Positions 38,062 to 42,149 of a stretch of 64,000 bases of DNA are shown here, piece by piece. The DNA lies in assembly GCF_003334385.1 (NCBI RefSeq), contig NZ_QOWN01000010.1; one strand, 5' to 3'. The stretch comes from Escherichia coli (GTDB lineage: Bacteria > Pseudomonadota > Gammaproteobacteria > Enterobacterales > Enterobacteriaceae). Position 1 is the stretch's first letter. Every line of letters begins with the position of its first letter. The notes beneath the pieces are model-generated. The model was not told where the DNA came from, searched no databases, and saw only the letters and a program-made list of their open reading frames with translations. A program made the translations under genes and the position numbers.

Positions 38062-38241
38062 ATGAAGTAGTTCGGGGAAATCAGTTGTCGTAATAATTAG
38101 CATGATTGGGGGCGATTCTCTGCAGCCCCCGTCACTGCTGGGGTTGAGTCATCTTGACGTCTGCTTTACGGGCGGTTAAGGTGCCTCTTGTGCGCCAGAA
38201 GTGCATATAAACGATAACATTGACCTGTAGACTTGATTATC

Positions 38242-38790
38242 ATGGACAAATTCGACGCTAATCGCCGCAAATTGCTGGCGCTTGGTGGCGTTGCACTCGG
38301 TGCCGCCATCCTGCCGACCCCTGCGTTTGCAACACTCTCTACCCCACGCCCGCGCATTTTGACACTCAATAATCTTCATACCGGAGAGTCAATCAAAGCG
38401 GAGTTTTTCGATGGCAGAGGCTATATTCAGGAAGAATTGGCAAAACTTAACCATTTTTTCCGCGATTACCGCGCGAACAAAATAAAGTCCATCGACCCAG
38501 GATTATTCGACCAGTTGTATCGCCTGCAAGGGTTGTTAGGCACGCGCAAACCGGTGCAACTCATTTCCGGTTATCGTTCTATTGATACCAACAATGAACT
38601 ACGCGCCCGCAGCCGTGGAGTAGCGAAGAAAAGCTATCACACTAAAGGCCAGGCGATGGATTTCCATATTGAAGGTATCGCGTTAAGCAATATTCGCAAA
38701 GCCGCGTTATCTATGCGCGCAGGTGGTGTAGGATATTATCCACGTAGTAACTTTGTGCATATTGATACCGGGCCAGCACGGCACTGGTAG
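38242..38790 (+). CDS. mepK: Murein endopeptidase MepK (YcbK), Tat-secreted
   Basis: 182 aa from ATG 38242; twin-arginine signal (NRRKLLALGGVALGAAILPTPAFA). Confidence 0.9.
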   Translation: MDKFDANRRKLLALGGVALGAAILPTPAFATLSTPRPRILTLNNLHTGESIKAEFFDGRGYIQEELAKLNHFFRDYRANKIKSIDPGLFDQLYRLQGLLGTRKPVQLISGYRSIDTNNELRARSRGVAKKSYHTKGQAMDFHIEGIALSNIRKAALSMRAGGVGYYPRSNFVHIDTGPARHW

Positions 38791-38816
38791 TAATTGCTTA
38801 ACGAAACAGGGGCAGT

Positions 38817-39464
38817 ATGAACTATCGTATTATTCCGGTCACCGCATTCTCCCAGAACTGTTCATTAATCTGGTGTGAACAAACCCGTCTGGCCGCACTG
38901 GTCGATCCTGGCGGCGATGCGGAAAAAATCAAACAGGAAGTTGATGACAGCGGCCTGACACTGATGCAGATCCTGCTGACGCATGGTCATCTGGACCACG
39001 TTGGCGCAGCGGCGGAACTGGCGCAACATTACGGCGTGCCGGTTTTCGGCCCGGAAAAAGAAGATGAGTTCTGGCTGCAAGGCTTGCCTGCGCAAAGTCG
39101 TATGTTTGGTCTGGAAGAGTGCCAGCCGCTGACGCCAGATCGTTGGCTGAACGAAGGCGATACCATCAGCATAGGGAATGTGACTTTACAGGTGTTACAT
39201 TGCCCTGGGCATACGCCGGGTCATGTCGTGTTTTTTGATGATCGGGCAAAGCTGCTGATTTCTGGCGATGTTATTTTCAAAGGCGGAGTAGGGCGCAGTG
39301 ACTTCCCGCGTGGCGATCATAATCAACTGATTTCTTCAATCAAAGATAAATTGCTGCCACTGGGGGATGACGTGATATTTATTCCGGGTCACGGACCATT
39401 ATCCACACTTGGTTATGAACGCCTGCATAATCCCTTCCTGCAAGACGAAATGCCCGTCTGGTAA
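38817..39464 (+). CDS. gloC: MBL-fold hydroxyacylglutathione hydrolase GloC (YcbL)
   Basis: 215 aa; THGHLDHVG metal-binding motif. Confidence 0.92.
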
Positions 39465-39471
39465 GGCACAT

Positions 39472-39496
39472 AAAAAAGCCCGCTTTTAATGCGGGC
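39472..39496 (-). terminator. Intrinsic terminator oriented for the minus strand (distal aspC terminator)
   Basis: Plus strand AAAAAA-GCCCGC-ttttaat-GCGGGC; the U-tract is on the minus-strand transcript. Confidence 0.55.
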
Positions 39497-39527
39497 CTGG
39501 ATTTCTGGCAAAGTGCGCTTTGTTTAT

Positions 39528-39626
39528 GCCGGATGCGGCACGAGCGCCTTATCCGGCCTACAAAATCGTGCAAATTCAAAATATTGCAGGGGACGCGTAG
39601 GCCTGATAAGCGTAGCGCATCAGGCA
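39528..39626. repeat. BIME: two REP units in inverted orientation
   Basis: REP1 GCCGGATGCGGCACGAGCGCCTTATCCGGCCTAC (39528-39561) and inverted REP2 GTAGGCCTGATAAGCGTAGCGCATCAGGCA (39597-39626). Confidence 0.85.
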
Positions 39627-39649
39627 ATGTTGCGTTTGTCATCAGTCTC

Positions 39650-39680
39650 AGCCCGCTTTTCAGCGGGCTTCATTGTTTTT
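39650..39680 (+). terminator. Hairpin plus T-run oriented for the plus strand (distal mepK-gloC terminator)
   Basis: AGCCCGC-ttttca-GCGGGCT followed by TcaTTgTTTTT. Confidence 0.5.
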
Positions 39681-39685
39681 AATGC

Positions 39686-40876
39686 TTACAGCACTGCCAC
39701 AATCGCTTCGCACAGCGGAGCCATGTTATCTGGTGTCATCCCGGCCACATTTACGCGACCAGAAGCAACCGCATATACGCCAAACTCTTCGCGCAGACGC
39801 AGCACTTGTTCTTTTGTCAGGCCACTGAAGGAGAACATGCCGTTCTGTTTGATGATAAAGCTGAAGTCGCGGTTTGCGCCTTTTTCCTGCAGCGTATTGA
39901 CGAACAACTGACGCATACGCTGAATACGCTGGCGCATATCAGTCAGCTCTTGTTCCCAAATCGCACGTAACGCATCGTTGCTCAGGATGGTGGCAACAAC
40001 AGAAGCGCCGTGTGCTGGTGGGTTAGAGTAGTTAGCGCGAATCGCCGCTTTCATTTGGCTGAATGCGCGATCAACGGTTTCACTGTCGGCAGCAACCAGA
40101 GTACAAGCGCCAACACGCTCGTTGTACAGGCCAAAGTTTTTAGAGTAGGAACTGGCAACAATCAGCTCTTTATGCATAGCCGCGAAAGCGCGCAGTCCTT
40201 CAGCATCTTCTTCCAGACCACGGGCAAAACCCTGGTAAGCGAAGTCAAACAGCGGTAACCAGCCTTTCTCAACGGAGAGTTGTGCCAGTGTTTGCCATTG
40301 TTCCAGCGTAGGGTCGATACCGGTTGGGTTATGGCAGCAGCCATGGAACAGCACTACGTCGCCAGCCTGAGCTTCATTCAGGCTGTTAATCAGTGCATCG
40401 AAGTCAAGAGTGTGATTTTCCGCATCATAATAAGCGTATTCACGAACTTCCAGACCTGCAGAGTTAAAGACGCTCTTATGGTTCGGCCAGCTTGGGTTGC
40501 TCACCCACACACGCTTAACGCTGGTATTTTTTGCCAGGAAATCGGCAGCCACGCGTAGTGCGCCAGTGCCCCCCGGAGTCTGTGCCGTGCGAGCACGTTT
40601 GTCATTGATCAGGGCGCTACCTTTACCAAACAGCAGTTCCTGAGTGCAGCGACCAAATTCAGGGATGCCGTCAATGCCGAGGTAATTTTTGGTGGTTTCA
40701 TTTTCGAGCAGATACTGTTCAGCCTTTTTCACGCTGGTCAGTACCGGGGTTTTGCCCGTCTCATCTTTATAGACACCAATCCCGAGGTTAATTTTGCCGG
40801 GACGTTCATCGGCACGAAACAGATCGGCCAGGCCCAGAATCGGGTCGGCAGGAGCGGCGGTAATGTTCTCAAACAT
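39686..40876 (-). CDS. aspC: Aspartate aminotransferase
   Basis: 396 aa; class-I PLP aminotransferase ([16 protein letters not shown]…). Confidence 0.97.
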
Positions 40877-41005
40877 GACGAGGTTCCATTATGGTTACAG
40901 AAGGGAAGTCCGCTATCAGGGTAACGGGAGATTTACAAAATTCCAACTATTACTGATGAAAACGCAGGCTGTTTTTGCAAGACGTGAGATTGCTCTGGAA
41001 GGTAT

Positions 41006-41035
41006 AAAAAAAACAGGACCAAAGTCCTGTTTTTT
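41006..41035 (-). terminator. ompF intrinsic terminator
   Basis: Plus strand A7-ACAGGAC-caaa-GTCCTGT-T5; U-tract on either strand, immediately 3' of ompF. Confidence 0.8.
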
Positions 41036-41060
41036 CGGCATTTAACAAAGAGGTGTGCTA

Positions 41061-42149
41061 TTAGAACTGGTAAACGATACCCACAGCAACGGTGTCGTCT
41101 GAACCTACGCCCAGTTTGTTGTCAGAATCGATCTGGTTGATGATGTAGTCAACATAGGTGGACATGTTTTTGTTGAAGTAGTAGGTTGCGCCCACTTCAA
41201 AGTAGTTCACCAGATCAACATCACCGATACCTTCTACGTCTTTCGCTTTAGATTTGGTGTAAGCGATGGACGGACGCAGACCGAAATCGAACTGGTATTG
41301 CGCAACTAACAGAACGTCTTGCGTTTTGTTGGCGAAGCCGCTGGTGTTTGTAAATTTATTAGTGATCGGCGTAGCGTTACGGGTTTCACCGTAGTTCGCT
41401 GCCAGGTAGATGTTGTTCGCGTCGTACTTCAGACCAGTAGCCCACTGTTCAGCTTTTTTACCGTTGCCAAGAGGTTGAGCTTCTTGCAGGTTGGTACGGT
41501 CAGCTGCACCATAAGCACCAACGATACCAAAGCCTTCGTATTCGTAGCTGATAGAACCGCCAACACCGTCGCCGTTAGAACGGCGTGCAGTGTCACGCTC
41601 GTTTTTACCCAGGTACTGAACAGCGAAGTTCAGGCCATCAACCAGACCAAAGAAGTTGGAGTTACGATAGGTAGCAACGCCGCCAACACGACCAACGAAG
41701 AAGTCATCGCTGTATGCAGTATCACCACCAAATTCTGGCAGCATATCGGTGTAACCCAGTGCATCATAAACCACACCGTAGTTACGGCCGTAATCGAAAG
41801 AACCAACGTCAGCGTATTTAAGACCCGCGAATGCCAGACGCGTTTTGTTACCAGTTTGAGCGTCAGCGCCTTCAGAGTTGTTACCCTGGAAGTTATATTC
41901 CCACTGACCATAACCGGTCAGATCGGAATTGATTTGAGTTTCCCCTTTAAAACCAAGACGGGCATAGGTCATGTCGCCATTGCCACCGTAACTGTTTTCA
42001 CCGTTACCCTTGGAAAAATAATGCAGACCAACAGCTTTACCGTACAGATCTACTTTGTTGCCATCTTTGTTATAGATTTCTGCAGCGTTTGCAGTACCTG
42101 CTACTAACAGAGCAGGGACGATCACTGCCAGAATATTGCGCTTCATCAT
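41061..42149 (-). CDS. ompF: Outer membrane porin F
   Basis: 362 aa; signal peptide [22 protein letters not shown]; porin beta-barrel ending in …VGIVYQF. Confidence 0.98.

Follow-up and report, generated by a model that had tools for sequence, protein, structure and literature searches.

A BIME-1 element flanked by two copies of a terminator hairpin between the convergent gloC and aspC genes of Escherichia coli

Results

The window analysed here is a 64-kb stretch (64,000 nt) of an Escherichia coli contig, and the subject of this work is the gap between two of its convergent genes. gloC (ycbL), the last gene of mepK-gloC, occupies 38817-39464 on the plus strand and aspC occupies 39686-40876 on the minus strand, both being open reading frames that carry these annotations in matching E. 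coli genomes; their stop codons end at 39464 and 39686 and delimit a gap of 221 nt. Read from the gloC side, the gap starts with an A-tract (ATAAAAAA, 39470-39477), found at the same position in alleles that lack the element described below and seen as a putative remnant of an ancestral terminator, which on the minus strand reads as the U-tract of the adjoining hairpin. This hairpin, H1 (AGCCCGCTTTTAATGCGGGCC, 39477-39497, minus strand), was recognised by a terminator scan and as part of a direct repeat, and its stem pairs GCCCGC at 39478-39483 with GCGGGC at 39491-39496. There follow a left flank (CTGGATTTCTGGCAAAGTGCG..., 39497-39526, plus strand), for which alignments show homology with TCAGATTGCTGACAAAGTGCG, the left end in other BIME-1 copies; a y-type REP (39527-39561, plus strand, fold energy -19.5 kcal/mol); an L linker of 35 nt (39562-39596, plus strand); a z1-type REP, inverted with respect to the y REP (39597-39627, minus strand); and a right flank (...TGCGTTTGTCATCAGTCTC, 39628-39649, plus strand) that aligns as an imperfect inverted repeat of the left one. 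The gap is completed by a second hairpin, H2 (AGCCCGCTTTTCAGCGGGCT, 39650-39669, both strands), built as AGCCCGCT/TTTC/AGCGGGCT and supported by the scan and by K-12 RNA ends, and by a T-tract (TCATTGTTTTTA, 39670-39681, plus strand), identified by the scan and in the alleles lacking the element, which would have belonged to the same ancestral terminator and now serves H2 on the plus strand only. Each hairpin directly abuts one end of the element. The two share the direct repeat AGCCCGCTTTT at 39477-39487 (H1) and 39650-39660 (H2), but the duplication is imperfect, the loops being unlike and one flanking base not being the same.

The original prediction had placed an inverted REP pair between gloC and aspC, and both units were found where it had placed them, the degenerate y consensus matching 39528-39561 (plus) and the z1 pattern 39597-39625 (minus) with 0 mismatches each, while neither pattern found a match in any of 100 shuffles of the window. 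The z1 assignment was independently checked by alignment to other BIME-1 copies, and the z1 REP is identical to those of the gcd-cueO and fepA-entD copies. The y and z1 matches in the gap are the sole ones in the window, which thus holds a single copy and no tandem array. The linker aligns with the L linker of other BIME-1 copies and contains, at 39574-39586, an IHF-like core (ATTCAAAATATTG) agreeing with the consensus WATCAANNNNTTR at 12 of 13 positions. The closest copies, again gcd-cueO and fepA-entD, align with high identity from about 39497 to 39649, leaving H1 and H2 just outside the repeated unit. BIME-1 has been described as a y and a z1 REP joined by a long conserved L linker, often with an IHF site, and as occurring in single copy (Ton-Hoang et al. 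2012). Judged by its sequence, the element at about 39497-39649 is a single BIME-1, composed of a y REP, the L linker, an inverted z1 REP and short inverted flanks. It shares with BIME-1 (also known as RIB or RIP) the inverted y and z1 REPs, the 35-nt L, the IHF-type core and the single, extragenic and transcribed state; the element itself shows no differences, and what sets this copy apart is where it sits, between two copies of the hairpin of the host terminator. The earlier suggestion that it might bind gyrase or IHF falls into two parts: the IHF part fits BIME-1, as a predicted site, whereas the gyrase part fits BIME-2, for which, and not for BIME-1, gyrase enrichment has been reported.

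The linker also gives a full-length match (39562-39604) to Rfam family RF02751, the sRNA ES036 (CssrF), scoring 53 bits where the gathering threshold is 37.6; the likeness is known here as a sequence match. This family appears to model the repeated BIME-1 linker rather than a single gene, and a literature search for ES036 returned nothing beyond grant numbers. Other weak Rfam matches, naRNA4 and the Trp leader among them, scored below the gathering thresholds and were dismissed. In E. coli 2015C-3905 a 1,277-bp IS621 (IS110 family) lies inside the z1 REP of this same BIME (L003, 2702-3978), inserted between GTAG and GCC, that is at window 39599/39600, with a 2-nt AG overlap at the junctions. 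IS621 prefers REP sequences, and an insertion in the z1 REP fits this preference.

The terminator scan, run over 38100-41100, returned 8 terminator-like sites where 3.4 were expected, and H1 and H2 are the two best of them. The scan calls neither on both strands: H2 is a plus-strand site (39650-39669; 8 pairs, 6 of them GC, tail TCATTGTTTT) and H1 a minus-strand site (39498-39476; 8 pairs, 6 of them GC, tail TTTTATGTGC). On the opposite strands the tails are U-poor (GGATTTCTGGCA for H1 on plus, GAGACTGATGAC for H2 on minus), and the stem energies are -12.9 (plus) and -13.6 (minus) kcal/mol for H1 and -14.0 (plus) and -15.4 (minus) kcal/mol for H2. The asymmetry from which the original prediction started, namely a U-tract of the gloC-side hairpin solely on the minus-strand transcript and a T-run of the aspC-side hairpin solely on the plus strand, is borne out by these calls. 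On the plus strand H2 has what an intrinsic terminator is expected to have, an 8-bp stem of -14.0 kcal/mol, the tail UCAUUGUUUUUA and a K-12 RNA end 3' of the stem; on the minus strand it lacks a U-tract (tail GAGACUGAUGAC), and still the aspC 3' end lies 4 nt past the stem. H1 in the window allele has the stem (-13.6 kcal/mol) and tail (UUUUUUAU) of an intrinsic terminator on the minus strand, with no end curated there in K-12, where the stem is weakened. The whole transcript is predicted to fold, on either strand, into one long hairpin (z about -5), at the base of which the ancestral stem would be re-formed from the left arm of H1 and the right arm of H2. The region contains 3 promoter-like matches against 3.0 expected, which is chance level.

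Over 39400-39750 the window is 100% identical to several non-K-12 strains and one base off K-12, and over 39250-39735 it is identical to BLR(DE3). Within 39440-39710 a single base separates the window from MG1655, namely G39493T in the right arm of H1; this K-12 change from G to T introduces a stem mismatch and takes minus-strand H1 from -13.6 to -7.4 kcal/mol. Among 5,426 E. coli genomes, 2,634 carry the window's version of H1 and 376 that of K-12, the latter being mostly laboratory derivatives. With the two versions so distributed, K-12 transcript maps at gloC-aspC may not represent most strains.

All the RNA data come from K-12, hence from a strain with the mutated H1. Term-seq (Adams et al. 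2021) gives one curated end in the gap, the primary aspC end at 984479 (-), in two growth conditions; placed by mapping the published flanking string onto MG1655, it corresponds to window 39646, which is 4 nt past H2 and before the BIME. SEnd-seq, through the bidirectional-terminator table of Ju et al. 2019 as re-listed in the Harris et al. 2026 preprint, contributes entry 69 (ycbK:ycbL:aspC), an overlap at 984478-984506 (window 39645-39673) with the hairpin AGCCCGCU/UUUC, detected in both log and stationary phase. Its plus-strand (ycbK:ycbL) end, 984506, is window 39673, just past H2, and consequently the mepK-gloC transcript crosses H1 and the whole BIME. No K-12 Term-seq end is curated at H1, none of the curated K-12 3' ends lies at the REPs, and the TERMITe 2025 supplement contains no occurrences of aspC, gloC or ycbL. 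In K-12, H2 defines the RNA 3' ends in both directions, with a mepK-gloC 3' UTR of about 209 nt that includes the BIME and an aspC 3' UTR of 40 nt without it. It had been predicted that each transcript reads through the whole BIME to the far hairpin, which would put REP stem-loops in both 3' UTRs: for gloC this is what the K-12 end maps give (end at 39673), but the aspC mRNA stops short of the element, at 39645/39646 by SEnd-seq and Term-seq, and carries no REP. The check proposed at the time was 3' end mapping, and the published K-12 data provide an end proximal to the BIME for aspC and not for gloC. Outside the gap, a very abundant Term-seq end (read count 334,046) is found at the ompF terminator, at window position about 41008 (MG1655 985841, -), 132 nt upstream of aspC, which Adams et al. 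class as orphan or upstream-of-ORF.

The strongest competing account keeps the original symmetry, each transcript passing its proximal hairpin and the BIME and ending intrinsically at the far hairpin, with 3' UTRs overlapping by about 200 nt. The sole mapped K-12 aspC end speaks against it, two independent methods and several growth conditions agreeing on a proximal position at H2, and so does the lack of any curated H1 end in K-12. It does, however, draw on the U-tract asymmetry of H1 and H2, on the plus-strand end at H2 (SEnd-seq, K-12), on the passage of aspC-strand polymerase across the BIME under Rho inhibition (see below), and on H1 being intact in the window and in the 2,634 genomes and weakened only in the K-12 group. 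We regard it as unlikely, though worth keeping in mind for strains with an intact H1. In that majority allele, H1 with its U6 tract (UUUUUUAU) should catch aspC transcripts escaping Rho, the outcome being a minor long aspC isoform that would overlap the gloC 3' UTR; what was first proposed for aspC could then describe a possible minor or strain-specific isoform in the window allele.

How the aspC end is formed can be approached through Rho inhibition. With bicyclomycin, downstream/upstream coverage on the aspC strand, at 984273 (-), goes from 21/102 to 105/114 (p = 7e-9), and on the gloC strand, at 984537 (+), from 17/173 to 69/226, read-through there being partly Rho-sensitive; the score is computed over 800-nt windows with low read counts, a resolution too coarse to place Rho action. 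The Rho termination regions of the Adams et al. Term-seq study lie just beyond each far hairpin. The rise in downstream coverage on the aspC strand implies that polymerase passes H2 and runs across the BIME, and the bicyclomycin data indicate that Rho accounts for most of the stop on this strand. Processing has probably produced the aspC end at H2: Rho termination followed by exonuclease trimming is the explanation offered for sharp ends that lie a few nt past a stable stem-loop lacking a U-tract and are accompanied by read-through that responds to bicyclomycin (Dar and Sorek 2018). The aspC end shares with the protected ends of that study both the precise position past a U-less hairpin and the bicyclomycin-sensitive read-through; it differs in that its U-less state is traceable to a dated sequence event, and in that here we infer the trimming.

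In the mechanism that we propose, polymerase on the aspC strand would pass H2 and, in the BIME or past it, be halted for the most part by Rho, after which 3'-to-5' exonucleases would trim the RNA back to H2. The insertion, having stripped H2 of its minus-strand U-tract, would have turned an intrinsically formed aspC 3' end into one that is Rho-assisted and hairpin-protected. REP hairpins are known exonuclease barriers. Since trimming from beyond the BIME must cross two REP hairpins, and no REP ends are curated, release close to H2, by Rho or by polymerase collision, is favoured.

Collision could also be given the whole task. H2 would then be a true bidirectional terminator, at which head-on polymerase collisions positioned by the stem-loop free the aspC RNA without a U-tract, its end being genuine and untrimmed. 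Such collisions, head-on and trailing, together with a stem-loop, give defined bidirectional termination (Wang et al.), H2 stands in the SEnd-seq list of overlapping bidirectional terminators (entry 69) with only 1 A in its 5' flank, and the lack of 3' ends at the REPs agrees with this. Yet bicyclomycin brings aspC-strand downstream coverage to 0.92 of upstream, which points to Rho, and gloC is about fourfold below aspC (RNA-seq base means of 4,900 vs 19,890), so that opposing polymerases may be too few. We find an untrimmed collision end doubtful, and retain Rho-assisted formation of a processed end as the working model for aspC.

The same gap was then compared across genomes. The filled left junction, belonging to an element of about 152 bp flanked by two hairpin copies, is present in 3,193 of 5,426 complete E. 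coli genomes (~59%) and the empty junction in 2,079 of them (~38%), and a few E. coli genomes have insertion sequences in the gloC-aspC gap. In O157:H7, in ST95 and in ATCC 11775, the type strain, the allele is empty and the spacer is 50 nt long (ACATAAAAAAGCCCGCTTTTCAGCGGGCTTCATTGTTTTTAA), with one hairpin. The empty E. coli allele (ACATAAAAAAGCCCGCTTTTCAGCGGGCTTCATTGTTTTT), with an A-tract upstream, a T-tract downstream and one hairpin between them, has all the features of a bidirectional intrinsic terminator, and across empty E. coli and relatives the spacers measure 42-70 nt and hold one such A-tract/hairpin/T-tract terminator. Scanning species genomes for the aspC 3' codons yielded 120 Enterobacterales loci, 115 with a recognisable gloC end; in these 115 the convergent gloC/aspC pair is conserved, with a median spacer of 67 nt. 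Thirty loci from the genera nearest E. coli were inspected, and a single A-tract/GC hairpin/T-tract terminator was found in almost all (Salmonella, Citrobacter, Enterobacter, Klebsiella and others), the exceptions being the filled E69 and Escherichia sp. ESNIH1, whose spacer holds other sequence too. As the nearest genera and empty E. coli alike show one such unit, the single bidirectional terminator is, on comparative sequence grounds, the ancestral design at the family level.

The arrival of BIME-1 would have duplicated the terminator hairpin of about 20 nt, one copy per side, most simply by target duplication, the A-tract staying outside the left copy, H1, and the T-tract outside the right copy, H2. 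Each hairpin resembles the terminator of the far gene because the A-tract was kept by H1 and the T-tract by H2; the criss-cross look is a by-product of the position of the element and no designed arrangement. Two other origins were considered. A foreign donor bringing hairpin and BIME together is unsupported, an 86-nt query across the H1 junction having matched only filled-allele genomes, usually once each. A shorter duplication of 11-12 bp, with the right arm of H1 supplied by the element, is less likely: other copies start at TCAGATTG, which aligns to 39497/8, and H1 of E69 equals the ST95-type empty hairpin bar one inserted T and one substitution.

E69 (CP089930) bears further on the history within the genus. 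Its flanking gloC and aspC are 92-93% identical to those of the window, and it has the same insertion junctions with a spacer 95.5% identical; a more distant Escherichia genome (L035) is empty, with a single hairpin. Because the diverged E69 is filled and E. coli groups closer than E69 lack the insertion, it would seem that introgression, or secondary precise loss via the hairpin repeats, must have occurred within Escherichia. It might even be argued that the filled allele is the older E. coli state and that H1/H2 recombination produced the 50-nt empty alleles by deleting the element precisely. Recombination within AGCCCGCTTTT would regenerate the O157-type empty sequence exactly, and the identical junctions in E69, with flanks 7-8% diverged, fit as well; but L035 and the other inspected genera have a single hairpin, and the empty E. 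coli alleles vary in their loop and flank sequences, as fits long independent descent. We judge a filled E. coli ancestor to be rather improbable, and the question touches history within E. coli only, the family-level ancestor being a single terminator either way.

Other mobile DNA is found at this site. In E. coli N1420 an IS3-family element lies in the loop of the single terminator hairpin (L008, about 330-400; between ...GGGGTCAGTTCA and TCAAGCGGGCTT), at a point equivalent to window position ~39660, and by virtue of this insertion the gloC/aspC terminator hairpin is a target for another mobile element too. The gloC-aspC spacers of Citrobacter gillenii, Leclercia adecarboxylata and Escherichia sp. 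ESNIH1 contain REP-like palindromes beside an unsplit terminator. Taken as sequences, these spacers appear to have been colonised repeatedly.

Concerning related elements elsewhere, four insertions share the ends TCAGATTGCTGACAAAG...CGTTTGTCATCAGTCTC and are each flanked by a duplication of 20-35 bp, namely those at gloC-aspC, at fbaA-mscS and two at asnS-ompF. The fbaA-mscS BIME-1 of E. coli is present in 3,720 of 5,426 genomes, ST131 being without it, and its direct duplication of about 35 nt takes in the fbaA terminator hairpin and A-tract (L192, E. coli KLY, 150-470, compared with L191, ST131). At asnS-ompF, Citrobacter youngae ATCC 29220 (L046, 908-1091) has a BIME-1-like element flanked by the perfect 23-nt repeat CCACAGGCCAGCATTGCTGGCCT, a hairpin that other Citrobacter have once, and Cedecea sulfonylureivorans (L054, 8262-8449) has an element of about 155 nt with the same ends and no internal REPs, bordered by a copy of the asnS hairpin that is perfect over 20 nt; these two asnS-terminator insertions are independent. 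At all three insertions other than gloC-aspC one end of the element lies directly against the 3' foot of the hairpin. In Salmonella enterica subsp. arizonae, too, extra sequence (AAAGGCCAGCTATGCTGTAATGCCAGTCAG...ACTGACTGGCCC) interrupts the asnS terminator hairpin, which in subsp. diarizonae is plain. Three other copies have no flanking duplication, and one further copy, sitting in BoxC-like repeats, is ambiguous; the survey of copies is small, the strict Y-L pattern scan of metagenomes giving few distinct loci and a scan of viral contigs three.

Reviews describe REPs as being without MITE signatures. The MITE-like traits seen here are the existence of filled and empty sites at two E. coli loci, ends that are imperfect inverted repeats, and flanking duplications at 4 insertions against none at 3 copies. 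We tentatively suggest, as an idea that may well prove wrong, that BIME-1-type elements may act like MITEs that insert beside a terminator hairpin, at its 3' foot, and duplicate it in full (20-35 bp). The Yersinia element YPAL/RU-2 is comparable in being a palindromic, non-coding sequence of about 150-170 bp that is not AT-rich and has target duplications of varying and uncommonly great length (3-26 bp) at targets with dyad symmetry; BIME-1 belongs to another sequence family, and the two are likened by description.

Discussion

We consider it probable, on the whole of the evidence, that a BIME-1 inserted at an ancestral bidirectional terminator and duplicated its hairpin, and that the copy on the aspC side, H2, now ends both RNAs in K-12, with Rho assisting on the aspC strand. 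Compared with the overlapping bidirectional terminators of Ju et al. 2019, the gloC and aspC ends are alike in falling within 29 nt across H2, but H2 has lost the 5'-side A-tract (1 A in 8) and has no intrinsic look on the aspC strand, the canonical form being that of the empty allele. Dual terminator/stabiliser REPs of the REP325 type (Harris et al. 2026 preprint) resemble the present case in having a REP in the 3' UTR and partial Rho dependence, whereas the gloC and aspC ends sit on an adjacent non-REP hairpin and not on the REPs.

A role at the DNA level, in which IHF would bind the L linker or the element would keep the convergent units topologically apart, with incidental effects on RNA, would suit the IHF-like core in L and the IHF site that BIME-1 L linkers frequently carry, but appears very unlikely, since no binding data were found for the gloC-aspC copy, gyrase enrichment is known for BIME-2 and not for BIME-1, and 38% of genomes do without the element.

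The gloC-aspC feature is real but largely ordinary, its element being of a known type and its site already catalogued. BIMEs between convergent genes are common, about 30% of convergent pairs having REPs between them (Harris et al. 2026 preprint), and H2 was already in a published terminator list, so that the finding as first described matters little. Its value lies more in a natural experiment. The filled allele (59%) and the empty one (38%) are both frequent and are set apart by nothing but BIME-1 and the duplicated hairpin, the K-12 H1 mutation is a third natural state, and isogenic swaps could gauge how the BIME affects aspC and gloC in their mode of termination, the content of their 3' UTRs, the stability of their mRNAs and antisense read-through. 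The locus would also make traceable a shift from an intrinsic to a Rho-assisted terminator via loss of the U-tract, a transition that Dar and Sorek proposed in general terms. If general, hairpin-spanning duplications would be a concrete footprint of how REP/BIME elements spread, and a recurrent route by which terminators may be split, duplicated or switched from intrinsic to Rho-dependent.
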